A stretch of 64,000 nt of DNA from Clostridia bacterium (GTDB taxonomy: Bacteria > Bacillota > Clostridia > UBA1381), in NCBI GenBank assembly GCA_900751885.1, contig CAADTH010000045.1:92836-156835 (forward strand). The letters are read 5' to 3'. Both the position numbers and the translations under genes were made by a program. The notes below the pieces were generated by a model that ran no database searches, had not been told where the DNA came from, and worked only from the letters and a program-made list of their open reading frames with translations. Positions 39,260 through 58,229 of this stretch are shown here, piece after piece (positions within the stretch are counted from its first letter, which is position 1; each line of letters opens with the position of its first letter).

Positions 39260-39335
39260 TGGTGGAGATGAGGGGATTCGAACCCCTGACCTCTTACATG
39301 CGAAGCAAGCGCTCTCCCAACTGAGCCACACCCCC
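39260..39335 (-). tRNA. tRNA-Ala (anticodon CGC), CCA encoded
   Basis: Minus strand GGGGGTGTGGCTCAGTTGGGAGAGCGCTTGCTTCGCATGTAAGAGGTCAGGGGTTCGAATCCCCTCATCTCCACCA. Cloverleaf folds, G3:U70 Ala identity pair is present, anticodon loop TTCGCAT. Confidence 0.9.
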
Positions 39336-39444
39336 ATATAAACTGAAATTTATTATATCACTTTCTTTTTTTCTTGTAAAGTATTTTCGCGAAAAATCAA
39401 ATTATTTTCGCCGAAAACACCATACTAAGATTGGAGGTATTTAT

Positions 39445-39771
39445 ATGAATGCTCTACACACAATCTTATCCTATCTGGCGGAAAGTGCCATTTTACTTTT
39501 TGAATTTGTAGGTGTCATCATCATTATTGTTTCCGGAATTTATGGCGTCATCAACTATATCCAAAGAAATCCTTTGACACGTCTTACGCTTGCCCGCGGA
39601 ATGGCAATGGCATTGGAGTTTAAATTAGGAAGTGAGATACTTCGCACGGTATTGATTCGTGATTTGTCCGAAATTTTAAATGTTGCGGCAATCATTGCAC
39701 TGCGCGGCGCCCTTGCGTTTTTGATTCACTGGGAAATCAAAACACATCAGGCGGACTCACACATAAAATAA
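39445..39771 (+). CDS. DUF1622 family small membrane protein
   Basis: 108 aa, 2-3 TM helices. ARGMAMALEFKLGSEILRTV is the conserved DUF1622 core. RBS GGAGG. Confidence 0.7.
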   Translation: MNALHTILSYLAESAILLFEFVGVIIIIVSGIYGVINYIQRNPLTRLTLARGMAMALEFKLGSEILRTVLIRDLSEILNVAAIIALRGALAFLIHWEIKTHQADSHIK

Positions 39772-39814
39772 CCTATTTTCTTTCTTTTTTCCACATCAAT
39801 ATACAAATTATGGA

Positions 39815-39843
39815 TTGAATTGTCAGATTTAAAATGATATACT
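39815..39843 (+). promoter_or_regulatory. Candidate sigma-70 promoter for mcrBC
   Basis: TTGAAT, 17-nt spacer, then TATACT with an upstream TGa extended -10. Lies about 30 nt before the mcrB ATG. Confidence 0.4.
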
Positions 39844-39874
39844 AAAAGAAAATTGTATGGAATGATGTGAGTGT

Positions 39875-41671: not shown

Positions 41672-41676
41672 GCGGT

Positions 41677-42744
41677 ATGCGGTCAGAGAGAAAAATCCCA
41701 ATCAAAAATATTTATTATATGCTTTGCTATGCCTCCGGCGAGCTTCCCCGAAACGGGGATGCTGTCTGCGGTTCAGAACCATTTGAACATATTTATGATT
41801 TGATTGCCCGCGTATTGATTCTATCCGTCACACAGCTTTTGCGCCACGGCTTCTACCGCGAATATGTCACTGCTGAAGCATCCTTGTCTACTCTGCGCGG
41901 CAGAATTGATATCCAAAAATCAATTCATCAGCAAACTACAATAAAAAAACAGCTTATCTGCTGTTATGATGAAATGTCTGCTGATGTAGCATTGAATCAA
42001 ATCATTAAGTCAGCAATGACCGTATTGCTTCAGCACTCTCACTTAAAGAAAGAGTACCGTTTGGAGTTAGAAAAGCTTCGCCGGCATTTTTCCCATATCT
42101 CTGATATTCGTCCAAACGCACAGCTATTTTCTTCCCTACGCCTAAGCCGAAGCAGCCGGCATTATCTTCTTACAATCCATGTATGTCAGCTGCTCTTTGA
42201 ACATCTGATTACGAATGAAAAAAATGGAACTGTGCGGTTTGCAGAATTTCTGGAAGAGAAGCAAATGTCGACGCTATACGAAAAATTTGTGCTGAATTTC
42301 TTCCTTCTCCATCTTCCCAGAAAAACATTTGACGTGCGTTCTTCTAAAATTAAATGGATTCTAGACGAAGGAGTGGAGCGTCATATCCCCTACCTTCCAG
42401 AAATGAGGACAGATATTGTCCTCACCAATAAGCAATCCCAGGTTCAGCTGATTATTGATACAAAATTTTATACAGATACACTGGCTGAAGGATACTTTTC
42501 GAAGGAAAAAATCATTCATCCTGAAAATCTTTACCAAATGTTTGCTTATTTGAGCAATAGCCGATTTACTGGAAACATAATAGGACTTCTTTTATATCCA
42601 ACGGTTACAGCCGAGCTTGACTTTGAAATTCCAATCAGAAAAAAACACATTTTAGTGAAAACCTTGAATTTAAACGCAGATTGGGACTCCATTGAACAAC
42701 AGCTCCTACAAATCCCGCTTCACACCAATCTTTTTCAGGCGTGA
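41677..42744 (+). CDS. mcrC: McrC-family nuclease subunit (PD-(D/E)xK)
   Basis: About 355 aa immediately after mcrB (an alternative GTG start at 41668 overlaps the mcrB stop). MRTDIVL...QLIIDTKFY is the McrC catalytic D...(D/E)xK region. Confidence 0.8.
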   Translation: MRSERKIPIKNIYYMLCYASGELPRNGDAVCGSEPFEHIYDLIARVLILSVTQLLRHGFYREYVTAEASLSTLRGRIDIQKSIHQQTTIKKQLICCYDEMSADVALNQIIKSAMTVLLQHSHLKKEYRLELEKLRRHFSHISDIRPNAQLFSSLRLSRSSRHYLLTIHVCQLLFEHLITNEKNGTVRFAEFLEEKQMSTLYEKFVLNFFLLHLPRKTFDVRSSKIKWILDEGVERHIPYLPEMRTDIVLTNKQSQVQLIIDTKFYTDTLAEGYFSKEKIIHPENLYQMFAYLSNSRFTGNIIGLLLYPTVTAELDFEIPIRKKHILVKTLNLNADWDSIEQQLLQIPLHTNLFQA

Positions 42745-42791
42745 AACAATCAAATCATGCCTATTTATCATTTTTATTCTGAGGTGACAGT

Positions 42792-43544
42792 ATGCTTTCA
42801 ACAGAAAAATTTCTTCAGCTCCGCTCCGATACGCGATGTGTTGACGCCGTTTCCTATACAGCTGAGCAGCGGCTTCAGCTGATTTTAGCAAAAGAAAATG
42901 CCTTTACCTACAGCAAAGAGCTGTTTTATACATACGGCGGTGAGGATTACACGGAGAGAATCCGGCATATTCCTATCCCGGATTCCCCTTGCTCTTATTC
43001 CAAGCTCGTCGAAACCTCAAAAGGCGAACTGATTATTTTAATTGATTTGATGCTTCAGAATTTTGAATCTCTCATCTTAAATCCTCCGCCGCATTCTCCT
43101 CTTGCGCGCAGTAACCCCAAAAAGGTGTTTATCGTTCACGGGCACAATGAAGCGCTGAAATTAAATGTCTCCACTTGGCTGTACTCTGTCGGATTAACGC
43201 CGGTCATTCTCCATCTTCAGCCCAATGGCGGTTTGACCAGTATTTTAGAAAAGATAGAACACAACTCGGATGTGGGCTGTGCCATTATCTTATTGACTGC
43301 CGACGATGTTGGGAAGTCTATTTCCGAAACAGACTATCATAAAAGAGCACGGCAAAATGTAGTGTTCGAGGCAGGCTATTTCGCCGGAAAGCTCGGTAAA
43401 AACCGTGTTGTTTTGTTATATGAAGCCGGAGTCGAGCTTCCGGGGGATCTTTTGGGGAATGTCTATATCCTCGCCGATGAGCACGACGGATGGAAAGAGC
43501 AGGTGCGGCTTGAGCTTTGTGCGATGGGGTTTCATCTTACATAA
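42792..43544 (+). CDS. TIR-like (CAP12/PycTIR-type, COG4271) domain protein with unknown N-terminal domain of about 110 aa
   Basis: C-terminal KVFIVHGHNEALK...GLTPVILHLQPNGG.TSILEKIE...GCAIILLTADDVG...ARQNVVFEAGYFAGKLGKNRVVLLYEAGVELPGDLLG matches the conserved block order of this TIR-like family. RBS GAGGTG. Confidence 0.8.
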   Translation: MLSTEKFLQLRSDTRCVDAVSYTAEQRLQLILAKENAFTYSKELFYTYGGEDYTERIRHIPIPDSPCSYSKLVETSKGELIILIDLMLQNFESLILNPPPHSPLARSNPKKVFIVHGHNEALKLNVSTWLYSVGLTPVILHLQPNGGLTSILEKIEHNSDVGCAIILLTADDVGKSISETDYHKRARQNVVFEAGYFAGKLGKNRVVLLYEAGVELPGDLLGNVYILADEHDGWKEQVRLELCAMGFHLT

Positions 43545-43559
43545 AATCATATCTGTCCG

Positions 43560-44051
43560 CTATAAGCTTATGTAGTACGGGCAGATATCTTCATATTCTC
43601 CACTTTTCATGCGAAAGCCCTTACAAATCGTCCCCAGCTGTGTGAAGCCGAGTCTTTCATATAAGTTTCTCGCATGGATATTGTTGGATACCACCGCATT
43701 GAACTGAAGGATTCGAAACCCAATTTCTCTGGCGTGAACCATACAATCTTTCACTAGTTTTTCTCCAATATGGATTCCCCGGCACTGCGCGCTGACGGCA
43801 TAGCTTGCATTGGCGATATGTCCGCACCGACCAATATTATTCGGGTGAAGAATATATAAGCCTACTATTGTTTCATTGCCTTTATCCTCTGCCACAGCGC
43901 AATAGCTTTGACTTTGGAAAAAGTCTAAACCTGTTTGTTTATCTAAAAGCTCCTCCTGTGGAAACGCAATCCCTTCCTCCACAATCTCATTCCAAATCGC
44001 TATCATTTGAGGAAGGTCCTGTTCACTAAATTGTCTTATCCCAAGTTCCAT
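43560..44051 (-). CDS. GNAT family N-acetyltransferase
   Basis: Start at MELGIRQF. The track start is a TTG inside the GGAGGT RBS. Acetyl-CoA motif RGIHIGEKLV present. Confidence 0.85.
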   Translation of the reverse strand: MELGIRQFSEQDLPQMIAIWNEIVEEGIAFPQEELLDKQTGLDFFQSQSYCAVAEDKGNETIVGLYILHPNNIGRCGHIANASYAVSAQCRGIHIGEKLVKDCMVHAREIGFRILQFNAVVSNNIHARNLYERLGFTQLGTICKGFRMKSGEYEDICPYYISL

Positions 44052-44120
44052 TTCACGTACCTCCAAATTTTGATCTGATTCTATTATACTTTTTTTGATG
44101 TGGGATGTAAAGAATATGAT

Positions 44121-44182
44121 AAAACTCCATTAGAAAGCCAAGCAAAACAAGAAACGTTTTCTTGGCTTTCTAATGGAGTTTT
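44121..44182. terminator. Long perfect hairpin (22-bp stem) at the low-coordinate edge of the AT-rich island; probable terminator of the zinc-ribbon operon
   Basis: aaaactccattagaaagccaag (44121-44142) pairs perfectly with cttggctttctaatggagtttt (44161-44182). T-rich on both exits. Confidence 0.5.
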
Positions 44183-44246
44183 GATTTGAAGTCAAAAAGG
44201 GGTGTAAAAACCTTTTATGTTCTTTTAAAATTGTCTTCAATATACT

Positions 44247-44678
44247 CTATATAGCTTTCATAGGTCCCACTACACTTTGTCGGAAAATCAAATCCTTTTC
44301 TCTTCTCCTCGCTGACAGGTTTGATATCCAAAGAGGATTCTGTATCTGCTCGTTTCCCTCAGTATATTCTGATTCTGCGATAAAATGATAATAAAAGAGA
44401 TATCCTGCTGCACTTCCTGCAATCAGAATAATCGCCATTGCTATTACAATAATCCACGATACTCCTTTGCGATGCGACCTATTGCTTTGTTTCCCTGTTT
44501 TGATTTGTGTACTGTTTACAGAAAAACCACATCCGCTACAAAATTTAGAATTTTCCTCTATTTGTCCGCCGCAATTTTTACAAAACTGCTTTAGAGGGAT
44601 TTTCTGAACCTTATCGCCACAATAATCACAAAAAATGTCCCCTTCTGTTACTTCATTTCCACACTTTTCACATACCAT
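44247..44678 (-). CDS. Double zinc-ribbon, single-pass membrane protein
   Basis: Start at MVCEKCGNEV (RBS GGGAGAG). Two CxxC-x(8-12)-CxxC ribbons, then TM VSWIIVIAMAIILIAGSAAGYLF. Confidence 0.6.
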   Translation of the reverse strand: MVCEKCGNEVTEGDIFCDYCGDKVQKIPLKQFCKNCGGQIEENSKFCSGCGFSVNSTQIKTGKQSNRSHRKGVSWIIVIAMAIILIAGSAAGYLFYYHFIAESEYTEGNEQIQNPLWISNLSARRREKDLIFRQSVVGPMKAI

Positions 44679-44689
44679 AGTAACTCTCC

Positions 44690-46315
44690 CTATTTTTTCT
44701 GTTTTCTGCCGTGTAAATTTATTCTGATGAATGCTATCAGCAGGAAACAGAATATGACAGCCAAACATAAGATAACAATGAATAAAACCACCTTATTGAT
44801 GGTATTAAATTCTATGTCAATCGTTGCATCCGAGCCCAAAACAGTTGAATATTCATTATTATAGAAGCTACATTCCTCTATATTGGATGAGAGTAAATTG
44901 GTTTTATCAGGGAGCTTGTATATCAGCTCAAATTCTGCTATTGGAATCATATCGTCAATCATTTTTCCTACTCTAATTGTCTCAGAAATCCGATTTTTCT
45001 GAAAGGGTATCATACTTTTTTCATATTCAATTCGGTTATCCCCTCTTATTATTTTTTGCGTAAATTCAGTTATTTTTTTACTATCGCGAGAATGAACCGC
45101 AATACAATATGTCTTATTCTCACCTTCCACGTCCGTCGAAATATTAGCTTTCCTATCATTCGTTTTGACATTATATAGTGTATCTAAAATTTTTTCATCA
45201 AATACCTTTGCTGTATCCAATGGAATTGAAAAAATAATTTTTCGTTCTATCCCTTTGAACATATTACTGTAATCTGTTCTTACCTGCAGAGCAGACAATT
45301 TCAATCCTCTTTGATAGGAATATTCAAATTGCCCCTCTTCTCCAGAATACCTGATTTGATTTTCGTGAACAGAGAGTGTATCACTTTCTGTAATAGATAA
45401 ATTTTTATAATATTGCGGATATGTAAAACTATACTCAAAATTCCCATCTTCATTGAGAACCTTTGTAACGCCTATACGTTCCATGCAATCTACCAAAACA
45501 AAATCCTTTTGCGGTGTTTCCGTTTCCAAGGTACTGACTGTCAATCCCGCTGCCAGCAAAGTCTTTTTTGATAATTCATATTGGTTTTCTGCTTTTATTG
45601 ACACAGTTATATCTAAGTTATCACTATTTTTATTTTCATTTGAAATCTCCCCTGCCGCTTTGAAATTAGTCCACACTGCACTTTTTGTGGAATCTATCAG
45701 ATGTTCCTTTCTTATTTTCGCTCTGATTGTCCGTTCGAATCCACCATCACCATTACTTGTTGTTACGAGCTCTAACTCATCAAATCTTATATGATTGCCA
45801 TCTCTTACGTCAAAATTTTCTTTTGTTTCATATGTTTTTCCATTCAAATCGATCATACAATTTTCAATTTTAATCAATCTGTCAAATTTTAATTCCTTCA
45901 TCATATTGTTTGACAGCAGTTGTTTTTGTAAAAAATGAAACATCTGTGCAGAATCAAAATTTTCAACAAATTTAAAGCTCTCTGAGGGGTCATAAATGAT
46001 TACAGGACGGTATCCCAATAACTGCTTCATATATGTTTCATATTCATCTCTTTTGTCAAACGAAAAACAAAGTGTTATTTTCATGTCGCGTTTTTGTTTT
46101 TCAATTTCATAGCTACACCAGCTTGGAAGCGTTTCACTCAAAATGTTTTCAAACGTTTTCGAGCCGCCATCTATAAAATTGTTTAAATCTGATCTGTCAA
46201 AGGTACATACAAGTGTTCTGCTTCCGCAAAAAGGTACTTCCTCTGCATATGCGGCTATCGCTGATAAGAAAAGAAGCGATAGGATGATAAAAATTGATGT
46301 GATATTTTTTTTCAT
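44690..46315 (-). CDS. Hypothetical secreted protein with C-terminal TM anchor
   Basis: 541 aa. Signal peptide MKKNITSIFIILSLLFLSAIAAYA and C-terminal TM VVLFIVILCLAVIFCFLLIAFI. No recognisable domain. Confidence 0.55.
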   Translation of the reverse strand: MKKNITSIFIILSLLFLSAIAAYAEEVPFCGSRTLVCTFDRSDLNNFIDGGSKTFENILSETLPSWCSYEIEKQKRDMKITLCFSFDKRDEYETYMKQLLGYRPVIIYDPSESFKFVENFDSAQMFHFLQKQLLSNNMMKELKFDRLIKIENCMIDLNGKTYETKENFDVRDGNHIRFDELELVTTSNGDGGFERTIRAKIRKEHLIDSTKSAVWTNFKAAGEISNENKNSDNLDITVSIKAENQYELSKKTLLAAGLTVSTLETETPQKDFVLVDCMERIGVTKVLNEDGNFEYSFTYPQYYKNLSITESDTLSVHENQIRYSGEEGQFEYSYQRGLKLSALQVRTDYSNMFKGIERKIIFSIPLDTAKVFDEKILDTLYNVKTNDRKANISTDVEGENKTYCIAVHSRDSKKITEFTQKIIRGDNRIEYEKSMIPFQKNRISETIRVGKMIDDMIPIAEFELIYKLPDKTNLLSSNIEECSFYNNEYSTVLGSDATIDIEFNTINKVVLFIVILCLAVIFCFLLIAFIRINLHGRKQKK

Positions 46316-46317
46316 TT

Positions 46318-49149
46318 TTAATCCTCCAAAATTAGATCATATCTGTAAATCGCATTTGCAGTCGCGCTGTCAGGCATGGAATAAAAATAGATTCTGTTGT
46401 CCATGATTTCCATTCCGCAATTTTCCAGATCACAGCTTAGTCTTAACAAATCAAACCGTTTTATCTCTTCCTTCTGCGTAAAGTCATTGCTTAAAGAGTA
46501 TAAAATCAATTCTGTATCTGTCTGATCAAAATACCACCAATTCCCTGCACCATCCTGACACATTGTAAAGAATGCTTGATTGCTATTGACCTCCACCATC
46601 CGTTTGCTATTACCGCTTTTCGCATCATAAAGGACAATTTGATACGGCAAGGCATCTTCTTGTTCCGTTTCATTCTTCACGGTTGTGATAATGCCATCCT
46701 TTTCATACTTCCATCCACTTATCCCTTCCGCCTTGATAAATCCACCACCATATTGCAGGTGAACCGCTTGCGCTGTACCTCTTAAATATCCATTCGAAAT
46801 ATATTGAACTGCTGCATGATATCCGCCCTCTTTGTAATATTCCCTTGGATATTCTTCGACTGTTATTTGCTTCCCGTATTCCTTCACAATCCCCCCGTCT
46901 TTGTTTATCAAGTAATAATCGTTTTCTGCTCCGCCCAAAAATGAAAATATGCTGTTTTCCTTTGTAACCACCATAAAATTATCATCCTGTTCTACCATAA
47001 CCTCCACAGGCTCATGCAATTCGCACAAATCAGATACAGAAAGATTTTCTCTGTTTAAACGCCTGATTGATTTATTGTTATCATTTGGAACATAATAAAA
47101 GTATTCTTCATCCATATGCAAGCACCAGTTGATGCTTTTTAAAATACTATCCTTTTTCTTTCCGTCCTTGCTTACGCGCAATAAATCATATACGCCTTTT
47201 TCTTCGCTTGCTTTCAGCAAATAGATATATGAGGCATCTATTCCGCAAATTGTAAAGAAATCCTCCTCATAAAGAACCTTATCCCCTGCGCTACCATCAT
47301 TGTTCTTTCGTTCCAATTTTCCATTGAGATTTTTCATATAGGTACATGCTTCATCCTTTGCAACCATGCGCTGATACTGCATGGTGTTTTCATCAAAATC
47401 TGTCGGATACGACACATTCCTGTTGTCATTTTCTTCATCCTCTTTCGCTTCTTCCTGTTGGCTTTTCTTGCTATCCAATGCCTTTTTCACTGCATTCTCA
47501 GCGTTCAGCATCTCATATTTTTTTCCTTCGCTCCATTCATACTCCCCTGAGGCGGTACTGCAAACTATATTTTTCACCTCTTCCCCTGATAAATTTGGAT
47601 TTATTGAGAATACCATCGCAGCAACCCCCGCAACATGAGGTGCCGCCATTGACGTTCCTTGGTTATTCAAATAAGTTTTATTTATAAATCCCAATGTGTT
47701 TACATATATTCCTGTACTATATATATTGACACCCGGAGCTAAAATATTGACTCTTTCGCCGCATTGGCTAAAATCAGCAATGGAATAAACGTTCTGTGCG
47801 TCACATTTGGCGGCGCCCACCACGATGATTCTGTCTTTTATTCTTTTATTTTCAATGGCGTTCAATACATCATATTTTGCATCCACATTCCCAAATTCCA
47901 CTCTCCTATCATAGTCTTCATATTTTGCTTTAAATGTATCTTTATTATCGTCTGTAAGCTCGACATAGCCATATTTATTCTGATCTTCCGGATCACCGGG
48001 ATCTACCCTTATGTATTGATACTTCGTATTGCTATCTGTAGAATTCTGATTTCCGGCAGCTGTACTTATAATAAAGTCATATCCACTATCCAGCAAAAAC
48101 TCTAAATACTCAGCAAGACAATTGCTGTCTTCTGTGATTTCATTTTTTGCTTTTATGCTGTCTCTGCTTGCAGCAAATGCAACTACATCATTTATACCCA
48201 TACTAATATTGACAACCTTGCATTTATCTATTACTATCAATTCAGTTAACGCTACAATATATCTGCTGATAGTAGTATAGTTTTCAGCAATTCCACTTTC
48301 CGAAACAGCATATAGCTTATTTTTAGGAGCTACCCCTGCTACCCCCTGTTTATTGTTGAATAACGCCGCTATTGTACCAGATACATGCGTACCATGACTG
48401 ATTCTTTTTAGTTTTTTATTTTCCTCTTTTATCTGTTTGTCACTTAAATTAAGTAACGGCGCTTTCTCAAAACGTAAATCGTTATGTCTGGTACAGAACA
48501 TATTATCAAAAACACCAATGTTTACTTCGCTCATATCATCTATGTATTCCCACGCTTCTCGTGCATGAATTGCTTTCATTCCCCAATTCAAATCTTCCGG
48601 ATTCACATTGCTATCCTGCCAATAACTCTTCCACTCTTTGTCATTTGGTGCTTTTTTATTATATTGAATATCGAGTTTTATCGCCGTATCAATCGATACA
48701 TGATTGACGAATTTTTCTTTCTTTATCTTTTCAGCAATTCCATTTAAATCATTGTAACGATAATGGTCTTTAAATTTTAGCTGGTACATTTTCGTACAAT
48801 CTAAATATCCTATCAATTCACAATGATATTTTTTCGCCAGTTCCTCAATAAAGCTATCCGCTACTGTACGGTCAGCTCTTATGATGAGTTGATTATCCAC
48901 ATAATGAATTCCTGTTTTCTCGTCGATTTGTATTTCTTCTTGATTTGCGCTTGTCCAATAGAAGCCGTCGCGATATTGAGAGGATACATTCGCATTTCTA
49001 ACAATCATGTAACCCACGCTTCCCGCGATGGCAATTAAAATACTGATAAGCAATACATACCGTGTCTTACACCTTTTCACCGCTGCTCCGCAGTAGATGC
49101 AAAATTTTGTTTTTGGGGGCAAATTCCTTCTGCACTTAGGGCACTTCAT
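46318..49149 (-). CDS. Zinc-ribbon / TM-anchored S8 subtilisin-like serine peptidase with C-terminal DUF5050-like propeller
   Basis: Start at MKCPKCRRNLPPKTKFCIYCG (RBS AAGGAAGG), then a TM helix. Catalytic D (GVFDNMF), H (HGTHVSGTIAA) and S (GTSMAAPHVAGVAAM). The C-terminal region has repeated YY...LYR/DG blades. Confidence 0.82.
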   Translation of the reverse strand: MKCPKCRRNLPPKTKFCIYCGAAVKRCKTRYVLLISILIAIAGSVGYMIVRNANVSSQYRDGFYWTSANQEEIQIDEKTGIHYVDNQLIIRADRTVADSFIEELAKKYHCELIGYLDCTKMYQLKFKDHYRYNDLNGIAEKIKKEKFVNHVSIDTAIKLDIQYNKKAPNDKEWKSYWQDSNVNPEDLNWGMKAIHAREAWEYIDDMSEVNIGVFDNMFCTRHNDLRFEKAPLLNLSDKQIKEENKKLKRISHGTHVSGTIAALFNNKQGVAGVAPKNKLYAVSESGIAENYTTISRYIVALTELIVIDKCKVVNISMGINDVVAFAASRDSIKAKNEITEDSNCLAEYLEFLLDSGYDFIISTAAGNQNSTDSNTKYQYIRVDPGDPEDQNKYGYVELTDDNKDTFKAKYEDYDRRVEFGNVDAKYDVLNAIENKRIKDRIIVVGAAKCDAQNVYSIADFSQCGERVNILAPGVNIYSTGIYVNTLGFINKTYLNNQGTSMAAPHVAGVAAMVFSINPNLSGEEVKNIVCSTASGEYEWSEGKKYEMLNAENAVKKALDSKKSQQEEAKEDEENDNRNVSYPTDFDENTMQYQRMVAKDEACTYMKNLNGKLERKNNDGSAGDKVLYEEDFFTICGIDASYIYLLKASEEKGVYDLLRVSKDGKKKDSILKSINWCLHMDEEYFYYVPNDNNKSIRRLNRENLSVSDLCELHEPVEVMVEQDDNFMVVTKENSIFSFLGGAENDYYLINKDGGIVKEYGKQITVEEYPREYYKEGGYHAAVQYISNGYLRGTAQAVHLQYGGGFIKAEGISGWKYEKDGIITTVKNETEQEDALPYQIVLYDAKSGNSKRMVEVNSNQAFFTMCQDGAGNWWYFDQTDTELILYSLSNDFTQKEEIKRFDLLRLSCDLENCGMEIMDNRIYFYSMPDSATANAIYRYDLILED

Positions 49150-49249
49150 CTTTTTTACCTTCCTTTTCTTCCAAAATAAAACAATTACCATATGGATTAC
49201 ACCTTCCTATGGTAATTGTATTCACTTCTGTAGCTTGTTTAAATTTATG

Positions 49250-50356
49250 TTACGCCCCTATTTCATCAGTGACATTCCCGTCATAATCCAATAAATATAA
49301 TTTGTTTTTGTAAGCACTTGCCAATCCGTTGCTGAGTCCCTGTATAGAGCCAAAGTATTTTTTGATATTTATCTCTTCCACTCCACCGCCGTTCATATCA
49401 TAGCGATATAGCTTAGAATCAACTTTATAATATATATCATTATTACAAGCAAATACCGAATAGCTTTGTCGATCGATTTGTGTAAGTTCGCGACGGCTTT
49501 TTCCATCTAAGCTTATTGTGAAAGAGCGATATTCAGAGTCTTGATATATAATCTGATCTTCCATAAATAAAAAATCACGTACTCCTCCGTCAATGAGTTT
49601 CTCCTGTTTTCCATCCACTAAAGATATTCTTATCAATTTATAGTATTTTTTATCTGAATTCAAACTATTATCTGTTATGGTTGCATAAATATAATTTTTA
49701 TAAATTTTGGCTTTATATATTTCATCACCACGCGATCCGATATCTATCTCGATCGAACGCTCTGAATATTTTTCCGAATTTAATCTTTTTGTTAAAACAC
49801 CGCCATCACTTAGTGTATAATTATATTTACCATTGATTAAAACTATATCGGTACTGCTTGGTATATATGGTACTTTTTCAAACTCAGATGCCTTATCTAA
49901 TATTCGATAGCAATCATTTTCATTGCCCGTACTCTCTTCATAATAAATTCCATTGTCTGCTACAGCAATCACACTTATTATACTGCTAGATATTTGTTCA
50001 GTGATTTTTGTTCTTTTATTCATTCTACACAATCCGAAATCTTCAAAATCAATATAATATATATACGAACCGGTTTCATAAATAAAAGTGTTATCATATT
50101 TACTATTATTTACGCTTAGTCCTTCATCATAAATTTTTATATCATTAACACTAGAATAAACACGAAAAACATTGATGCTTGCGATAAAGAATAAAATCAA
50201 AATTGCCAGCATCATGATAAAGACTTTCTTTTTTGAATTATTTTTATAAGGATATATTACAGACGCCGCCTGAAACTGATTTTGCAGTTGATTTCCGCAG
50301 TAAACACAAAATTTTATTCCTTCTTTATTTTCTTTTCCGCACTGATTACAAAACAT
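49250..50356 (-). CDS. Zinc-ribbon / TM-anchored DUF5050-like beta-propeller protein
   Basis: Start at MFCNQCGKENKEGIKFCVYCG (RBS GAGGGAG), then a TM helix. Repeated blades (IYYID..., GIYYEE..., YIYATI..., IIYQDS..., DIYYKVDSKLYRYDMNGG). Confidence 0.68.
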   Translation of the reverse strand: MFCNQCGKENKEGIKFCVYCGNQLQNQFQAASVIYPYKNNSKKKVFIMMLAILILFFIASINVFRVYSSVNDIKIYDEGLSVNNSKYDNTFIYETGSYIYYIDFEDFGLCRMNKRTKITEQISSSIISVIAVADNGIYYEESTGNENDCYRILDKASEFEKVPYIPSSTDIVLINGKYNYTLSDGGVLTKRLNSEKYSERSIEIDIGSRGDEIYKAKIYKNYIYATITDNSLNSDKKYYKLIRISLVDGKQEKLIDGGVRDFLFMEDQIIYQDSEYRSFTISLDGKSRRELTQIDRQSYSVFACNNDIYYKVDSKLYRYDMNGGGVEEINIKKYFGSIQGLSNGLASAYKNKLYLLDYDGNVTDEIGA

Positions 50357-50369
50357 ACTCTTCTCCCTC

Positions 50370-50930
50370 TTACTTTTCTTTTTGTATCGCGACAACTCCA
50401 AGCACAGCTGTCAATATGCTCAGCAGTATAATGCTGGGCATTCTTTCAACATAGGGATTCAAAACCACTGTAATCGCTCCCATAAAGCTATCGCTTGTTG
50501 TTTGTTTGAAAAACAGGCTTGCAAGAATGATGATACATGTAGTCACTGCCATCGCAATCAGATTCTTATTTTTAGTTTTTTTTGAATAAAGGATAAAGTG
50601 TAATGCGCGGATAACTCCCCACATTCCTATTGCAAAATAGCAGGTGCAAAATGAAACAAATCCGATTCCATCCTGCCGAAGCAACAAATCCGAAACCGTA
50701 TTGACACTTGCTTTTAAGCAAACATTGAGTTGAAACAGTGCCAATACTGCAAATGATAAAATTGCCATCCAATGCAGCACCTTTGACACATCTATTTTAG
50801 ATATGCTTGCCGCACTGCCTGCATTGTGTCCATTTATAGCAACGGCTGTTGCCTCCCCATTGTCAGCACCGCACTTTGTACAAAACCGCTCATTGTTTAA
50901 CTCACTTCCACAATTGATACAAAATCTCAT
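50370..50930 (-). CDS. Zinc-ribbon protein with 4 predicted TM helices
   Basis: 186 aa. MRFCINCGSELNNERFCTKCG, then hydrophobic helices. Confidence 0.62.
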   Translation of the reverse strand: MRFCINCGSELNNERFCTKCGADNGEATAVAINGHNAGSAASISKIDVSKVLHWMAILSFAVLALFQLNVCLKASVNTVSDLLLRQDGIGFVSFCTCYFAIGMWGVIRALHFILYSKKTKNKNLIAMAVTTCIIILASLFFKQTTSDSFMGAITVVLNPYVERMPSIILLSILTAVLGVVAIQKEK

Positions 50931-50970
50931 AATCCTTCTCCTATCTCAAGGCTTTGCCTGAATGCTGCCT

Positions 50971-51396
50971 CTAGTCCTGTGTTTGTATTGGTTTCCCGCA
51001 TCGGGCACAAAACTTTGCGGTATCTTTATTGATATAGCCACACTCGCATTGGATTCCATTTTGGACTGGCGGCGGCGTTATCGGCTGTGTATATTGTACC
51101 GTCTGTATTTTTGCCTCCTCAAGCATTTGGAGCTGTTGTTTCAGCTGTATTATTTGTTGCTCGCGTCCCGCTATTTCATTACATAGTTCAACACACTGCT
51201 CTATCTGAATTTCTCCGCTTGTCTGCAGGTGATAGATTTGTGTGCCCATGCTATGTAGCAAATGATTTTTTTCCTGTTGTGCATCTTCAATCTGCGTATT
51301 TAATTTTGCCTTTTCAACTAACATCTTTGAGCCTTCGCTCACTGTATTTACCCCTTTGCTTACGCCTACCACCAGCTTATCCAAAAAACCTGCCAT
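50971..51396 (-). CDS. Coiled-coil protein with C-terminal zinc ribbon
   Basis: 141 aa. Helical N-terminus MAGFLDKLVVGVSKG..., Q/E-rich coiled coil, C-terminal CECGYINKDTAKFCARCG. Confidence 0.62.
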   Translation of the reverse strand: MAGFLDKLVVGVSKGVNTVSEGSKMLVEKAKLNTQIEDAQQEKNHLLHSMGTQIYHLQTSGEIQIEQCVELCNEIAGREQQIIQLKQQLQMLEEAKIQTVQYTQPITPPPVQNGIQCECGYINKDTAKFCARCGKPIQTQD

Positions 51397-51446
51397 TTTA
51401 CATTCCCCCTATTTATTTTTTAATATAAGTAACATACAAAAACCCA

Positions 51447-51824
51447 CTACTGCCGTTTGTATGCAGTAAATTGATTCCATGATAAAATAGCCAAGATAGC
51501 ATATACTGCAATATTCAAAAGGAAGCTTGTGTTAAATGAATACATGATAATACTGAACAGATTGCTGCATGCTCTCAGCCCAAAAGCCACCCCCAACGCT
51601 AACATATCATTTTTACTGAAGCTCAGCACAAGCCCCATGATGTAAATGAAGTATAAGATTGGACCTACAATTCCCACAATGACACTGAGAACGGTAAATT
51701 GGCACAACAGCAAATAGATTGGATAAATCAATACCAATATGCGTGAAATTTGTAAACCGATCAGCATGATATCTTTGCTTTTAAAATAGTCATTCAATAC
51801 CTTTTGTACATCTGATAATTTCAT
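51447..51824 (-). CDS. Small 4-TM membrane protein (first gene of the operon)
   Basis: 125 aa, RBS AAGAGGAAG, four hydrophobic helices. Confidence 0.58.
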   Translation of the reverse strand: MKLSDVQKVLNDYFKSKDIMLIGLQISRILVLIYPIYLLLCQFTVLSVIVGIVGPILYFIYIMGLVLSFSKNDMLALGVAFGLRACSNLFSIIMYSFNTSFLLNIAVYAILAILSWNQFTAYKRQ

Positions 51825-51987
51825 GTTACTTCCTCTTTTCTATAAGATTCTTTCGTTTCATTTTAAACCATCCATCGTTTTATATGCTTTGTTCATCGTT
51901 TTCGTACATCTGCCGTTTTTTTTATTTTATGCGTTCTGGCTGTACCCGACCGTTCTTATGTCAATCTTCTACATCCTATTTAAAAAA

Positions 51988-52029
51988 ATAAGAATCACCA
52001 CATAATTTACATTATGTGGTGATTCTTAT
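51988..52029. repeat. Left dif-like recombination site embedded in a 19-bp-arm perfect palindrome
   Basis: ataagaatcaccacataat-ttac-attatgtggtgattcttat. The 24-nt core accacataatttacattatgtggt lies at 51997-52020. Confidence 0.6.
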
Positions 52030-52171
52030 CGGATTTTATGATAAACAACGAATTCTTTTCTTTTAATAAACAAAAAACCCACTGCATTTAGACCGATAGA
52101 TACCTTAAAAATCCATCGGTCTGTTTCTGCTTACATTTTTTTCAACATTTTTCTTAATTTTTTAAAGTCTA

Positions 52172-52199
52172 TTGACAAACCCTTTTTTTCGACTATAAT
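52172..52199 (+). promoter_or_regulatory. Consensus sigma-70 promoter inside the flanked segment, currently facing away from the zinc-ribbon operon
   Basis: TTGACA (52172-52177), 16-nt spacer, TATAAT (52194-52199). Confidence 0.55.
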
Positions 52200-52227
52200 A
52201 TGTATAGAGAGAACTAAGAAGAATCAT

Positions 52228-52265
52228 CAAATAAACCACATAATGTAAATTATGTGGTTTATTTG
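52228..52265. repeat. Right dif-like recombination site embedded in a 17-bp-arm perfect palindrome
   Basis: caaataaaccacataat-gtaa-attatgtggtttatttg. The central 4 nt are the reverse complement of the left site. It ends 1 nt before the recombinase stop codon. Confidence 0.6.
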
Positions 52266-53114
52266 TTAGCACTGCAACAAGCCTAATTTCTGTATTTGTT
52301 TTCTGTGAACCTCTCCTGTTTCCATTGTATATATCCGTGTTGTATTTATATTGCTATGTCCAAGTATATCTGCAAGGCGTATAATATCCCTTTGGGCTGA
52401 ATAATATGTCCGGGCAAATAGATGTCTGAAGTTATGTGGAAATACCTTGTTTTTGTCTACCCCTGCGTCAGCACATAGCTTTTTCATGTCACTCCAAATA
52501 TTTGACCGATCCATAGGCTTTCCTGATTTTGTTATAAACACCGCTCCGCTGGTAATTCTTCGCTCTCTGACATATTTTTTGAGCAGCTGACAAAGCTGTT
52601 TGGGCAATATTACAATTCTCATTTTGCCTTTACAATTTATAGTTGCCTGTCCAGCCTTCACCGCTTCCACTGTAATAAATCTAAGTTCCGATACTCTGAT
52701 TCCTGTTGAACAAATGGTCTGCATTAAATAATATAACCTTTTGTTGTTTTTATCCAAAGCTGCCCTTAGCAGTCTTTGATATTCTGCCTTTGTCATCTCT
52801 TTTTCCTTGGCAGCAAATATTTGTCTTTGAATCTTTACCGCTTTCACCTTGCAGTCCGTCCACCCAACAAATTCCAAAAAACGATTCAGCGATGAAAGAA
52901 TTGCGTTAACGCTTGCGGGAGCATACTTTCCTATGATAATTTGCTTGTACTCCAACATTAAGCTCTTATCCACCTCTCTGTCTAAGCACCATTGTCCAAA
53001 TACCGTTACATCATGGATATATTTATTCAATGTAGAAATGGATTTTTCCTCGAACTTTAAATATTCTCTAAACTCATCAATTCTTTTTACTGTTATTTTT
53101 CTCATGCTTGCCAA
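52266..53114 (-). CDS. Tyrosine-type site-specific recombinase (Xer-like, 282 aa)
   Basis: N-terminal SAM-like core-binding domain. Catalytic region GIRVSELR, HNFRHLFA, LGHSNINTTRIYT (R...HxxR...H...Y). Confidence 0.88.
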   Translation of the reverse strand: MASMRKITVKRIDEFREYLKFEEKSISTLNKYIHDVTVFGQWCLDREVDKSLMLEYKQIIIGKYAPASVNAILSSLNRFLEFVGWTDCKVKAVKIQRQIFAAKEKEMTKAEYQRLLRAALDKNNKRLYYLMQTICSTGIRVSELRFITVEAVKAGQATINCKGKMRIVILPKQLCQLLKKYVRERRITSGAVFITKSGKPMDRSNIWSDMKKLCADAGVDKNKVFPHNFRHLFARTYYSAQRDIIRLADILGHSNINTTRIYTMETGEVHRKQIQKLGLLQC

Positions 53115-53273
53115 CTCCTTTTCTATAGTTTATCACGAATGAAAAAATATATTAGGAGTCTGTTTACAGTTTTTTATGTAATATGCCTTAACAGGAAAAA
53201 GCCGCTGGTATTTTCCATAAATCCTTCATTGATTCCAAACAGCAGCACCCTCTGACAATAAAATCTGATTATA

Positions 53274-53918
53274 TTAATTTCTAACTAAAGTATATGTGTT
53301 ACATTCCCCCTCGGGTGCTGAATTGAAATAGCTGGTATGATTGCATTCATATTTGACAGCATATGTAATACCACCGCCGCCATCTTTTATGCCTTTTATC
53401 TGAACTGTACCGGTAGTTGGCACTTTAAATTCCCGGGGTTTGTTTTTTATCATAAAAGCATTTCCAATAGGAGCACCATCAACTAAAATCTGAACATAAT
53501 CTCCGTCTTCTGCCGCATAATCCCAAATCCAAACTTTCGACTCATCCGATACGCTATCGTGAGTGACCGTGTAGTCCTGTACACCTATCGTTTCATCTGA
53601 CAGCATCAGTGTGGTGCCGGCAGATAATGAGGTAGAAATTTTTTCTCTAATAGCCTGCTTTGCCGCATCGGAAGTATTGATCGAAGGTGTAGTGCTGATG
53701 AAAAACATCGTTACCATTGATGCAATAATCAGGACAATTCCTGTAGTCTTTATCCATTTATCAAACGAGATTTTTCTATTTGTCTTTGGATTTTCTTCAG
53801 GCGGAGTTTGATTATTTTGAGTTGACTGAACAGATTCATTGTTCGCTTGTTCAGAAGTGTACAGTGTATTCATAGCTTCATTGATTGAATCCTGTGAGTC
53901 TTTTTTTCTATTATTCAT
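53274..53918 (-). CDS. Hypothetical single-pass membrane protein with beta-rich extracytoplasmic domain
   Basis: 214 aa. Low-complexity N/Q/S-rich N-terminus, TM GIVLIIASMVTMFFI, and a C-terminal domain with no recognisable motif. Confidence 0.5.
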   Translation of the reverse strand: MNNRKKDSQDSINEAMNTLYTSEQANNESVQSTQNNQTPPEENPKTNRKISFDKWIKTTGIVLIIASMVTMFFISTTPSINTSDAAKQAIREKISTSLSAGTTLMLSDETIGVQDYTVTHDSVSDESKVWIWDYAAEDGDYVQILVDGAPIGNAFMIKNKPREFKVPTTGTVQIKGIKDGGGGITYAVKYECNHTSYFNSAPEGECNTYTLVRN

Positions 53919-53923
53919 AAAAC

Positions 53924-54373
53924 TTACTCCTTCATGTATTTCAATGGTTTCATTTTAAAATACATGCACATGGCAATCCGGCACACAACCATTTGAACAA
54001 TCATTAATATACAAAACAATCTGTGTCTTGCTTCACTCTGGACTTCATAGCCATAATTTAAAATCGCAATTCCTACTACTATGATGAGAATGTCTAATAG
54101 AAGCGTCACAACATATGAATATAACCAGGGAAGCTTTTTGAAGCATTTCCTAAAACATGGCACAAGCATAGTGATAGAGGCCATTATTCCAAGTGCACCA
54201 AACAATGAAAATCCCGCAGTGTTACTAGCGAAACCAGAAGTAAGTATTGTATTCATATCTATCAACAACCCGAATGGTATGAAAAAAAGTTCCAATATTA
54301 AAGGAAAAACTATTCCTATAAACCATAAAATGGAAACCAGATTTGATATGGCATTTTTAAACCCATTTTTCAT
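53924..54373 (-). CDS. Hypothetical 4-TM membrane protein
   Basis: 149 aa. Its ATG overlaps the stop of the AAA+ gene by 4 nt, suggesting translational coupling. Confidence 0.5.
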   Translation of the reverse strand: MKNGFKNAISNLVSILWFIGIVFPLILELFFIPFGLLIDMNTILTSGFASNTAGFSLFGALGIMASITMLVPCFRKCFKKLPWLYSYVVTLLLDILIIVVGIAILNYGYEVQSEARHRLFCILMIVQMVVCRIAMCMYFKMKPLKYMKE

Positions 54374-57300
54374 ACCGAAACCTCCTTAATATCTTCGGCT
54401 GTTATTGTGATTAGCTCTTCTTTTGTCAAATCATTGTCCTTACTTAATCTAAGTGCCTGATTATCTACTGATTTTTCAAATACATTTCTAACAAATCGAC
54501 CGTTTCCAAACTGAGGATTCTGTTTTGCCGTCTCGAACAGATTATAAAGACTTTGCTTTGCCTGGGTATCAATCATATAGCCTTTAGAATTGTATTGTTT
54601 TTCCGCGATTTGAATCAATTCCTTTATGGTATAATCAGGAAACTCAATTATATTTGCAAACCTGGATTTTAGTCCCGCATTTTTTAACAGGAAATTGTCC
54701 ATATCATTGCTGTATCCAGCTAAAATAACAACCAATCTATCCCTATTATCATCCATCAATTTAACCAGTGTGTCAATGGCTTCTCTGCCAAAATCATTTT
54801 CGCCACCTTGTATCAGCGAATAGGCTTCATCAATGAATAAAACACCATCTAATGCACTTTGTACTATCTGTGTGGTTTTTATTGCCGTTTGACCAACATA
54901 TCCTGCTACAAGCCCTGCTCTGTCTGTCTCGACTAATTTGTTGGCTCTGATAACCCCCATATGATACAACATATTAGCAACTGTTCTTGCCATCATGGTT
55001 TTACCCGTCCCAGGATTGCCCTTGAAAATCATGTGCCTCGTTTGTGTTTCATCTACTTGTAATCCTAGTTTTCTTCGTTCTTCTTGCATCCTAAGCCGGG
55101 CATTCAGACTTCTCATGTAATTTTTAACAACTTCTAAGCCAATCACATTTTCAAACTCTTTTTCTATGTCGAATCTTATATTATCAGCTTTTTTCACAAC
55201 AATATCTTCAGGTAGAATAACATTCATTTCGTTTGATGCAACATCTGATATTGCAATTCTCGACGATTGATTTCTTACAAGTTCATCAATATAATTTCGA
55301 ATCATTCTTCCGTTGCCTGAGTGCACGTTTGAATGTTTCTGAAGATTATGAATCTGTTCCTTGAAAAGATTGACACTTGCATCTGTGAATACAAATCCCC
55401 TGCTCTCAATCATCTTCAAGCCAATTTGAAATAATTCATCAACTGAATAGTCTGGAAAATTGATTCTAAGAGGGAATCGGGATTCCAAGCCTGAATTTGC
55501 TTTTAAAAAATCTTTCATTTCTTTTTCATATCCAGCCAGTATAACCAATATTTCGCCTCGATAATCCTCAATCAGCTTAATGAGAGTGTCAATGGCTTCT
55601 TGACCAAAACTACTGCCATCGTTTGTTATCGCGTAGGCTTCATCTATGAACAAAACCCCACCCAAAGCCTTTTGAAATATCTCTTCTGTTTTTCTGGCAG
55701 TTTGCCCAACATATTCTGCTACTAAACCACGTTTATTGGTTTCAACTAAATGACCTGATTTTAAAATGCCCATCTGTTTGAACATATCGGCAACAACTCT
55801 GGCAATTGTTGTTTTACCTGTCCCAGGATTGCCAGAGAATATCATATTCAACGACTGGGTGGTATCCACTTTAAGGTCAGCCTTTCTACGCTTTTCCTGA
55901 GCAATAAGCAGCTTATGTTGTGTTCTGACAAAATCCTTAACTTTAGATAAACCAATTATTTTTGACAACTCCGTTTCCAAATCAAAGTTGTTTGTTTCAT
56001 CGAATTCAAAATCGGCTTTTGTTAATAATTCTAAATCAACAGTATGATCTTGGACAATACGCCTAGACTGCTTTAAAATAGCTGCTTCAACCATATTTCT
56101 CACCAATCTGCCATTACCATTGTCATTTTTACCCTTTATTTGAGATTTCTCAAATAATTTTAACAAGCCATCTTCGCATTCGCTATCAATACGATATCCT
56201 TTATTTCTTGCAGTAATTAAAGAGATATGATACAGTTCTGACGGCGTATAATCCTCGAAGTTTATCCTATTGGGAAATCTTGATTTTAAACCGGGATTTG
56301 CTTTCAAGAGTTCTCCTATTTCCTTTTCATAACCAGCCAAAATGACAACTAAATCATCACGGTTGTCTTCCATACCTTTAACAAGTGCATCAACTGCTTC
56401 AAGTCCAAAAATATCATTTTTATCTCTGTACAAGGAATATGCTTCATCAATCAATAGGACACCGCCAATACTGCTGCGAATCACTTGAGCTGTAAGCTGT
56501 GCCGTCTGACCAATATATTGCCCCACCAAATCGGCTCTTGTAACCTCCCTGAGTTGCCCGGAAGAAAGAACACCGATCGCTTTTAAATATTTTGCTACCA
56601 TACGTGCAATCATTGTTTTACCTGTACCCGGATTACCGGTAAATATCATATGCATGGAGACATCCGCAGCTTTAAGCCCTTGTACTCGTCTAAGCTCTTG
56701 AACCTTTAAATTTTCTTCAATGTTCAGCACATAATCTTTGACACTTTTAAGACCAATAACAGTATTGAGCTCTGTTTTTATCTTATCAGCTGCAACAGAA
56801 TCATACTTTTTCACAAAATCCGATAAAGCTATCTCTTGGTTATTGATTGTTGCCACAAAGCAGTTATTATATGAAAGAAAAACTGATTCTTCTGACTGTG
56901 TTTGATTTCTCAAACGATATTCAGATAAAGCCTTATAAATTTCGTTTTCTATATAATCTTCCAGTCCTTTAATTCCTGTTTTGGTATGAAAGGATGATTT
57001 GATTTTATCATTGAAGGCAGAATCTGTAGCTATATTCATTTTCAAATACTGTTTGCATTTATTTATAAAACGAGCAATCAACATATGAGTGATAGAAGCT
57101 ATTTCTTGCTCCTTAAAATTCTGCATCAAAATGATATCACCAATGCATTTTGTAAAAGCAGTGCCAAATGTTTCAGAAATCTGATTTTCTCCTTTTTCTG
57201 AAATAAATATAAAAAATTTACCGTTACAATGAAGTACATCAATAGAATTTGTTAACAAAGCTCCTGTTGCTTCAACCAGCATGTTATTCTGAAGCGCATA

Positions 57301-58223: not shown

Positions 58224-58229
58224 TTGTCA

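Follow-up and report, generated by a model that had tools for sequence, protein, structure and literature searches.

We analysed 64,000 nucleotides of DNA from Clostridia bacterium (GenBank assembly GCA_900751885.1, contig CAADTH010000045.1, positions 92,836 to 156,835 of the forward strand), a stretch that we call the window throughout and whose own numbering we use. At 44247-51824 it carries a cluster of seven open reading frames (ORFs), all on the - strand, which encode zinc-ribbon membrane proteins, a subtilase and their putative partners, and upstream of them lies a predicted inversion switch adjoined by a tyrosine recombinase gene. We suggest that this may be a phase-variable operon whose ribbon-sharing products assemble at the cell envelope. 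Architectures were drawn from Pfam scans and hydropathy, and labels such as L001 denote the homologous loci that were compared. The genes and the end of the putative operon are as follows, from gene 1 to gene 7.

51447..51824, - strand: gene 1 (g125), 125 residues, four hydrophobic segments.
50971..51396, - strand: gene 2 (g141, coiled-coil zinc-ribbon protein, CC-ZnR), 141 residues, soluble and without transmembrane (TM) helix, helical/coiled-coil body and C-terminal ribbon.
50370..50930, - strand: gene 3 (g186, ZnR-4TM), 186 residues, N-terminal ribbon and four TM helices.
49250..50356, - strand: gene 4 (g368), type-II protein of 368 residues with a ribbon, one TM helix (residues 45-63) and an extracellular DUF5050 beta-propeller.
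46318..49149, - strand: gene 5 (g943), 943 residues with ribbon, TM helix, pre-catalytic region, S8 subtilase and propeller; alternative start at 49191.
49090-49143, - strand: N-terminal ribbon of gene 5.
About 49000-49071, - strand: single TM helix of gene 5, from hydropathy.
48595-48999, - strand: propeptide-like pre-catalytic region of gene 5, some 140 residues between the TM helix and the catalytic domain.
47470-48594, - strand: S8 subtilase domain of gene 5 (Peptidase_S8, E 4.5e-33).
46321-47412, - strand: DUF5050-like propeller of gene 5, a conserved C-terminal beta domain of about 365 residues.
44690..46315, - strand: gene 6 (g541), type-I protein of 541 residues with a Sec signal peptide (..AYA|EE), a repeated alpha/beta ectodomain and a C-terminal TM helix with KR tail.
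44247..44678, - strand: gene 7 (g143), 143 residues with two CxxC..CxxC ribbons, one TM helix (residues 73-91) and a short external tail.
44121..44182, - strand: inverted repeat I2 (96% complementary), a hairpin with a 26-bp stem and UUUU behind it; probably the intrinsic terminator of the operon.

An earlier note on this DNA, made from its letters alone, had given the cluster the same coordinates but counted eight genes separated by 2-60 nt. There are seven, and the intergenic gaps from gene 1 to gene 7 are 50, 40, 13, 100, 2 and 11 nt, i.e. 2-100 nt (the gap between genes 4 and 5 is 58 nt instead of 100 if the alternative start of gene 5 is used). Much of the remaining description stood. A purine-rich Shine-Dalgarno sequence precedes each of the seven genes, in line with the strong ribosome-binding sites reported; gene 1 is a 4-TM protein by hydropathy; Pfam and motif evidence assigns a terminal ribbon to five proteins, the products of genes 2, 3, 4, 5 and 7; the 541-residue protein has its C-terminal anchor, with a KR tail and a Sec-type signal peptide; and domain scans of the cluster found neither the sigma factor nor the response regulator whose absence had been remarked, nor any other DNA-binding domain. 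The spacing of the genes, the one promoter element upstream and the one 26-bp hairpin terminator downstream suggest that the seven form an operon. An upstream ORF of 11 codons (MKRKNLIEKRK, 51826-51861, - strand) stops 1 nt before the ATG of gene 1, overlapping the Shine-Dalgarno sequence of that gene; it might encode a leader peptide, serve translational coupling, or be there by chance.

The concentration of ribbons in this cluster is far from chance. Terminal CxxC..CxxC motifs occur in five ORFs of at least 100 residues in the 64-kb window, and four of the five lie within the seven genes (Fisher p 2.6e-5). The fifth such ORF (25310-28093, - strand, 927 residues) is probably SecA-like, as judged by its length and C-terminal zinc motif only. 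The ribbons vary in how well they match known profiles. Those of gene 7 are recognised by Zn_Ribbon_1 (E 4e-12) and DZR (E 3.3e-9) and that of gene 4 by Zn_Ribbon_1 (27.7 bits), the ribbon of gene 3 (CxxC-x9-CxxC) falls under the Pfam cut-off, and that of gene 2 (CxC-x10-CxxC) reaches 23 bits for a cut-off of 25. The earlier note had made conservation of the cysteines a check of its proposal, and they are indeed conserved in homologues of g141, g186, g368 and the proteases, with two exceptions: the second Cys pair is degenerate in L132, and one version of the protease gene, in which TPR repeats take the place of the peptidase, has no ribbon.

Gene 1 has no match in Pfam, NCBIfam, PADLOC or PHROG; its orthologues in L001 and L003 stand at the same position and are 44-48% identical. 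Orthologues of gene 3 are 31-42% identical and keep all four cysteines, and the spacing of a ribbon followed by four TM helices recurs in paralogues from L130, L137 and L003. Gene 2 has a conserved N-terminal motif, MAGFLDK..G..KGV..VS.GSK. The propeller of gene 4 is a clear DUF5050 domain (PF16472, E 1.5e-10, 41.2 bits for a cut-off of 27), and its orthologues in L001 and L003 are 39% identical to it, that in L132 29%.

The S8 assignment of gene 5, already made in the earlier note, is firm: the triad and the oxyanion Asn are intact, with D215 (GVFDN), H252 (HGTHVSG), N367 (AAGN) and S500 (GTSMAAPH), and the closest solved structures are Bacillus subtilisins (up to E 1e-20). The DUF5050 propellers of the same note fared unevenly, since gene 4 lies above the cut-off and the C-terminus of gene 5, taken alone, just below it (26.6 bits for 27). 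Comparison of the two propellers with hhalign was not significant. When the AlphaFold2 model of the gene 5 propeller was searched with Foldseek, all 200 matches at E<=0.001 were propellers, including 3s25 from Eubacterium rectale. Searches of PDB sequences with the 541-residue family, the propeller and CC-ZnR found no match. The AlphaFold2 model of the 541-residue protein has a pLDDT of 79.

Upstream of gene 1 we found the following elements.

52266..53114, - strand: Xer-like tyrosine recombinase, presumed invertase, 282 residues (Phage_integrase, E 4.9e-30; below every equivalog cut-off).
52235-52258, within 52228..52265, - strand: recombinase-proximal recombination site, inside a 17-bp palindrome.
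52172..52199, + strand: sigma-70-type promoter TTGACA-16-TATAAT, a 12/12 consensus match and the only such in 15 kb; identified by consensus match only.
52021..52234, no strand: invertible segment, 214 bp between the 24-nt sites.
51997-52020, within 51981..52030, - strand: operon-proximal recombination site, ACCACATAA-TGTAAA-TTATGTGGT on the sense strand.

The whole inverton element measures 238 bp. Both of its lox-like sites have the form ACCACATAA-6 nt-TTATGTGGT, which can equally be written ACCACATAAT-N4-ATTATGTGGT; they are 100% complementary to each other and their centres are reverse-complementary (TTAC/GTAA). As assembled, the promoter of the window is directed not towards the operon but into the recombinase gene, antisense to it, and the operon-proximal site lies within a 20-bp perfect hairpin followed by U7. 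When the element is inverted in silico, this stem is reduced to the 10-bp stem of the site itself. Locus L003 is laid out in the same manner: it has a recombinase at the same position (57% identical to that of the window), the same half-sites around another spacer, and a segment of 250 nt. The promoter there (TTGACT-17-TATTAT, extended TG) is directed into the operon, and the hairpin, as assembled, is a 13-bp stem without adjacent U-run that turns, upon inversion in silico, into an 18-bp G+C-rich stem followed by AUAUUUUUUUU. The extended hairpin and U-tract thus arise in only one of the two orientations (-29.8 versus a 10-bp stem in the window, a 13-bp stem versus -33.5 at L003). We therefore read the window as assembled in the OFF state, where the promoter points away and a predicted terminator forms, and L003 as assembled in the ON state, where the promoter points in and the terminator is broken. 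The two diverged loci would then share one design. At L001 the 206-kb contig of a metagenome-assembled genome (MAG) begins exactly, at position 1, with the site that precedes the homologous cluster, a third variant of it, and a break at such a place is expected where an assembler meets the element in two orientations. Transcription from the promoter in the OFF state would enter the recombinase gene from its 3' end, in antisense (52172-52266), which could feed back on the frequency of switching.

The site type is not peculiar to this cluster. The pattern ACCACATAAT-N4-ATTATGTGGT occurs in at least 120 gut-metagenome loci (L010-L129), a recombinase 44-73% identical to that of the window accompanies it in 87 of the 120, and the centres are reverse-complementary in 38 of 39 paired sites. 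One related locus, with the centre AAAC/GTTT, was assembled both ways in different samples, in four contigs one way (L017, L022, L064 and L113) and in three the other (L036, L053 and L083); the retrieved DNA of these seven contigs, about 0.1-9 kb either side of the sites, holds no homologue of the recombinase. Elsewhere the cargo of this site type includes large surface proteins with signal peptides and one 9-TM transporter-like protein. The recombinases closest to that of the window, in L034 (73%) and L040 (62%), adjoin operons that encode SPFH (Band_7_1), ribbon and ribbon-membrane proteins. In L034 (350-3133) there is a YdjI-like SPFH protein with four C-terminal ribbons, together with ribbon-headed multi-TM proteins, and in L040 (2079-6849) a YdjI-like SPFH protein with a GYF_2 domain, ribbon-headed multi-TM proteins and a ZnR-TM-DUF6591 protein. 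The anatomy of the switch and the comparison with related loci thus back the phase-variable expression that the earlier note had suspected, and the element of the window is probably invertible.

The cluster belongs to a widespread and unstudied family of gene clusters of gut-type Clostridia. The same gene order recurs in four loci besides the window, which bears out the expectation that these genes are linked in other genomes. In the five distinct loci (the window, L001, L002, L003-L005 and L007; protein identities of 30-57%) the shared order is 4TM, CC-ZnR, ZnR-4TM, ZnR-TM-DUF5050, [X]-propeller and the 541-residue protein; the contig of L007 is cut inside the propeller gene, so that only this gene and those downstream of it are visible there. 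The module X is S8 in the window and L003, an M4 thermolysin with FTP propeptide in L001 and L007, and TPR in L002. The gene of the 541-residue family always lies directly downstream of the propeller gene, at a distance of 2-20 nt. Across loci the propeller is 66-71% identical, its 541-residue partner 47-50%, the S8 domain 43% and the pre-catalytic region 25%. The far higher conservation of the propeller than of the S8 domain, together with the exchange of X, indicates that the propeller and the 541-residue protein are a constant pair and the catalytic module an exchangeable one. The 541-residue protein is of a rare family, made up of nine clusters of sequences: among GTDB species representatives it is found in a single MAG labelled 'Clostridia bacterium', and a metagenome scan with peptide patterns of this family found nothing. 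A word-index search with the propeller found three proteins only. What follows the 541-residue gene is variable. In the other loci the ribbon-TM genes placed there have SH3_3, YARHG, NADase_transloc/discoidin, RCC1, LRR_5 or SLH-associated ectodomains, and the place of gene 7 in L001, L002, L003 and L007 is taken by larger double-ribbon paralogues with SH3_3, YARHG, NADase_transloc/discoidin and other ectodomains.

The soluble CC-ZnR protein has a much wider distribution. With a profile built from relatives of g141, the number of representatives retrieved is 4563 at E<=1e-3, falling to 708 at <=1e-10 and to 55 at <=1e-30; the majority are 130-180 residues long and matched over their full length. 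Cluster look-ups gave these relatives no name in the source databases, and none was found in the viral contigs or plasmids searched. We inspected further contexts of the family (L130, L132, L133/134, L135, L136, L137 and L138), and in 11 of 11 distinct loci genes for ribbon membrane proteins lie close downstream of the CC-ZnR member, usually adjacent to it. The neighbour is a ZnR-4TM protein with the TM spacing of g186 in L130 and L137, and a DUF5050 protein is present in addition in L132 and L130. In longer members the ribbon is multiplied into soluble arrays, up to 19-fold. The extreme is P0024 (L138, 373-4326), a soluble protein of 1317 residues without TM helix, whose coiled-coil head is followed by 19 tandem zinc ribbons and whose gene is immediately followed by those of a ZnR-TM-M4 peptidase and two further ZnR-TM proteins. 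This linkage suggests that CC-ZnR proteins are multivalent scaffolds beneath the membrane for ribbon-headed membrane proteins, and we propose this role for gene 2. It also lends comparative support to the envelope complex with a shared cytoplasmic partner that was among the ideas of the earlier note. A separate ribbon array, P0142, is fused to EAD7, an 'effector-associated' adaptor domain.

Hydropathy, positive-inside counts and the Cys4 sites agree in predicting one topology, with all ribbons in the cytoplasm and propeller and protease outside, as had been proposed from the letters of the DNA. The same facts can be read in a more modest way, namely that the ribbons are mere determinants of topology, fast-folding N-terminal plugs that force the N-in orientation of a loose set of surface proteins that form no complex. 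Ribbon-TM-ectodomain proteins are indeed very common in Clostridia, with many unrelated ectodomains, and their ribbon is always on the cytoplasmic side of the single anchor. Yet plugs leave unexplained the soluble CC-ZnR proteins and 19-ribbon arrays, the ribbon on a 4-TM protein, and a gene order conserved at 30-57% identity, and we regard this explanation as very unlikely. In P0006, a homologue of the 541-residue protein, a ribbon has been added after the C-terminal anchor, hence on the cytoplasmic side. A ribbon at this end of the protein fits the notion that it is a functional tag of the system.

Taken as a whole, the mechanism that we prefer, a phase-variable operon for the membrane-anchored assembly of ribbon-sharing proteins in the envelope, has in our view an even chance of being correct. 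It starts from the anatomy of the switch, the domain content, the topology signals and the conserved linkage; the further steps and the function we infer. The adjacent recombinase would flip the 238-bp element, aiming the promoter into the operon and breaking the terminator, and in the resulting ON state the seven proteins would be produced together. Four products would insert N-in/C-out with a cytoplasmic ribbon, the 541-residue protein would adopt its type-I topology and CC-ZnR would stay in the cytoplasm. The ribbon heads might then bind to the CC-ZnR scaffold and ZnR-4TM, or assemble jointly with them, gathering the ectodomains in one complex whose working surface would be made up of the gene 4 propeller, the protease-propeller and the 541-residue protein. 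The protease itself would be a subtilisin zymogen fused to a strongly conserved propeller, which would pair with the anchored 541-residue partner. As a propeptide-like region separates the N-terminal anchor from the catalytic domain in both S8 and M4 versions, maturation should free the enzyme from its anchor, and the pairing of propeller and 541-residue protein would hold it on the cell after cleavage. What the assembly would deliver is proteolysis at the surface along with binding of ligands, in a part of the population. Expression in a subpopulation is usual for surface structures that are exposed, costly or targeted by phages or immunity. The swap of catalytic modules (S8, M4 and TPR) with retention of the propeller and the 541-residue protein counts in favour of such a protease platform.

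Several observations weigh against this mechanism. The pre-catalytic region of gene 5 has no match to Pfam Inhibitor_I9, and calling it a propeptide is based on position and length only. The AlphaFold2 model of the gene 5 propeller is of low confidence (pLDDT 57.6). The transcript of the ON state must still cross the 10-bp hairpin of the site. The best Foldseek matches of the modelled 541-residue protein are to Ost1/ribophorin I, with E 1e-8 and TM-scores of 0.26-0.33. These proteins share with it a type-I topology, a beta-rich multi-domain ectodomain, one C-terminal TM helix and a short tail, but identity is 8-9%, there is no oligosaccharyltransferase context, and the likeness may be one of generic alpha/beta repeats; it might at best be a weak hint. 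Finally, regulators adjoin several related clusters (TetR, HTH, a LytTR two-component system and a Ser/Thr kinase), which fits a sensory role too.

This last point leads to the main rival, an array for transmembrane sensing or signalling, in which the ectodomains sense ligands and the ribbons relay the signal, either as tethered nucleic-acid-binding heads or through CC-ZnR to a regulator. A TetR gene comes first in L001 and L003, a LytTR system with kinase flanks L130, a Ser/Thr kinase L002, and HTH proteins L040, L135 and L137. There are precedents: ZnR-TM-YARHG proteins have been proposed as membrane-tethered transcription factors (PMC3355149), and in Bacillus subtilis SamG and SamH behave like a pair that signals envelope stress and is held in check by SamI (bioRxiv 10.64898/2026.02.06.704340). 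In the window, however, the cluster encodes no DNA-binding regulator, as noted above, and the cytoplasmic part of these proteins is barely more than one 22-residue ribbon with a consensus near-identical across paralogues, which argues against specific outputs. That two unrelated broad-type endopeptidases exchange in one slot suggests an effector rather than a sensor. We hold signalling to be unlikely. The anti-sigma-like module, a special case of it that the earlier note had put forward alongside signalling in general, did not survive scrutiny. The ribbons are of the type CxxC-x9-13-CxxC and match Zn_Ribbon_1/DZR rather than ZAS (zf-HC2, HxxxCxxC), no cognate sigma gene was found, and sigma-factor domains are absent from the window genes at 44247-57987 and from L001, L002 and L003. 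The only ZAS-related signal was Sigma_reg_N in one L003 paralogue, at 25.9 bits for a cut-off of 26.3.

How does an envelope assembly under an inversion switch compare with known systems? The putative operon belongs to a broad family of ribbon-based clusters, in which it has not been described before, and its switch is a variation on a known kind of inverton. The nearest relative in design is cwpV/RecV of Clostridioides difficile, where likewise a tyrosine recombinase inverts a short element ahead of a cell-surface gene, in another member of the class Clostridia. An intrinsic terminator forms there at the junction of repeat and inverted region in the OFF orientation only (PMC2784873), as it does here in silico. 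The cargo differs, a seven-gene operon instead of one gene, and the recombinase of the window adjoins its switch. The sites of the window, unlike those of cwpV, are 24-nt lox-like palindromes with an asymmetric centre, and its promoter lies inside the element whereas that of cwpV lies outside. A promoter within the element is the classic design of fimS- or Bacteroides-type invertons. With the switch of the window, orientation-dependent terminators would have a second representative, one from outside C. difficile and joined to an invertible promoter.

For the logic of the ribbons, the closest analogue studied by experiment is the PspA-YdjGHI (SamGHI) system of B. subtilis, where YdjI/SamI, an SPFH protein that is soluble and ends in a ribbon, is brought to the membrane by ribbon-headed YdjG/SamG together with YdjH (PMC8581546; PMC11237479; bioRxiv 10.64898/2026.02.06.704340). 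A ribbon-headed membrane protein and a ribbon-tailed soluble one share an operon in both cases, and the sister invertons L034 and L040 drive operons of SPFH, ribbon and ribbon-membrane proteins. Yet the cluster of the window encodes no SPFH (Band_7_1), PspA or TPM-domain protein detectable with Pfam. Lacking SPFH and PspA, it is not a member of that system. Its soluble partner, a short coiled-coil protein, comes from another family, and its ectodomains are a protease and propellers, not NTF2-like domains. In both systems the contact through ribbons is putative.

Two further comparisons concern single components. The ZnR-TM-YARHG proteins of Coggill and Bateman (2012, PMC3355149) have, like those of the window, an N-terminal Zn_Ribbon_1/DZR, one TM helix and an extracellular domain, and genes for them occur in L002, L132 and L133, extended clusters homologous to this one. 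They were described as single proteins, without operon, scaffold protein, protease partner or switch. The mycosin MycP is likewise an S8 protease at the outer face of the cytoplasmic membrane within a multi-protein membrane complex (such a complex is only proposed here), but where mycosins begin with a signal peptide and are anchored at the C-terminus, the product of gene 5 is headed by a ribbon and an anchor and ends in a propeller.

In gut Clostridia, few architectures without annotation are as common as that of the ribbon-TM-ectodomain proteins. One might speculate that the locus exposes an unrecognised and widespread organiser of the Clostridia envelope. In such a system the Cys4 ribbon of about 22 residues would be a universal docking tag, coiled-coil scaffolds with 1 to 19 ribbons would recruit any ribbon-TM ectodomain (proteases, propellers, SH3, LRR and lectin-like domains), and dual-action invertons would switch whole assemblies. 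We consider this extension possible and rather doubtful. The locus is a compact case in which to look for it, with seven proteins, a candidate cytoplasmic partner, a natural swap of catalytic modules and a switch that could be locked ON or OFF. If ribbons are docking tags, many membrane proteins now called 'zinc ribbon domain-containing' could be annotated in one stroke. It would also show how some Gram-positive gut bacteria organise and phase-vary their surface proteases and adhesins, with relevance for colonisation, foraging on mucus and protein, phage susceptibility and immune recognition.

The surroundings of the cluster bear on two remaining explanations. G+C content is 34-38% across 44-58 kb and 44-50% in the flanks, which marks a low-GC island; it adjoins a flank of intermediate G+C that resembles a defence island (39260-44066). 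An origin from a prophage or plasmid was considered and dropped, as PHROG matches are only generic (ribbon, protease, integrase). An Rfam scan of 43500-58500 gave no match. The features beyond the cluster and its switch are as follows.

39260-39335: tRNA-Ala.
39875-42744: McrB/McrC.
42792-43544: CAP12/PCTIR TIR-domain protein.
43560-44066: GNAT acetyltransferase.
54370-57987, - strand: 3xAAA+ protein of 1205 residues with three SpoVK/CbbX/EccA-type modules.

In this setting the cluster might be taken for a system of anti-phage or inter-bacterial conflict, or for a phase-varied adsorption shield like CwpV of C. difficile, a phase-variable surface protein that confers phage resistance (PMC4737114). 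The low-GC island starts near a tRNA gene and comes with McrBC and the CAP12/PCTIR TIR protein, in PADLOC the subtilase has a generic match (E 2.9e-16), as has the AAA+ protein nearby, to IetA (E 1e-25), and the EAD7 domain of the distant ribbon-array protein is an adaptor of conflict systems. But no cluster protein matches any PADLOC model besides the generic S8 domain, the AAA+ gene is split from the cluster by the recombinase and the switch and missing from all homologous clusters, and no relatives were found in the viral contigs or plasmids searched. We judge a conflict system decidedly unlikely. A role as surface shield would be a sub-case of the envelope assembly and compatible with it. 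The specific candidate IetAS was rejected: its AAA+ and S8 genes would be 5 kb apart here, with the recombinase, the switch and four other genes between them, the matches are generic, and the AAA+ gene is absent from orthologous clusters.

The same two proteins, a mycosin-like subtilase and an EccA-like AAA+, might also suggest an accessory module of a type VII-like secretion system. The best NCBIfam match of the protease is the mycosin of that system (TIGR03921, E 1.3e-21), the 3xAAA+ protein matches EccA, SpoVK and CbbX models, and a DUF5050 propeller, TsgL, is a component of the variant T7SSg (PMC11217815). The match to TIGR03921 reaches only 77 bits for a cut-off of 278.75, however, and the AAA+ protein is unlinked to the cluster elsewhere. 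Neither the island nor the homologous loci encode an EccC/EssC FtsK-type ATPase, WXG100, EccB, EccD or EssB, and the absence of FtsK-type ATPase and WXG100 genes effectively refutes membership. We would be greatly surprised if this explanation were right.

The earlier note had named the AAA+ protein for structure predictions with the ribbon domains, and this link fell away, since its gene is not conserved with the cluster and is absent from every homologous one. It overlaps by 4 nt the gene of a 149-residue 4-TM protein, which is followed by that of a 214-residue single-TM protein (53274-57987, - strand); this AAA+ gene and its two small membrane partners stand next to the ribbon cluster in no other locus, and their PADLOC matches are generic ones to IetA/TRIP13 only. 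The three small 4-TM proteins of the region (g125, the TM part of g186, and g149) have no detectable homology to one another. Although it shares the low-GC island with the envelope operon, the AAA+ trio is possibly a separate unit.

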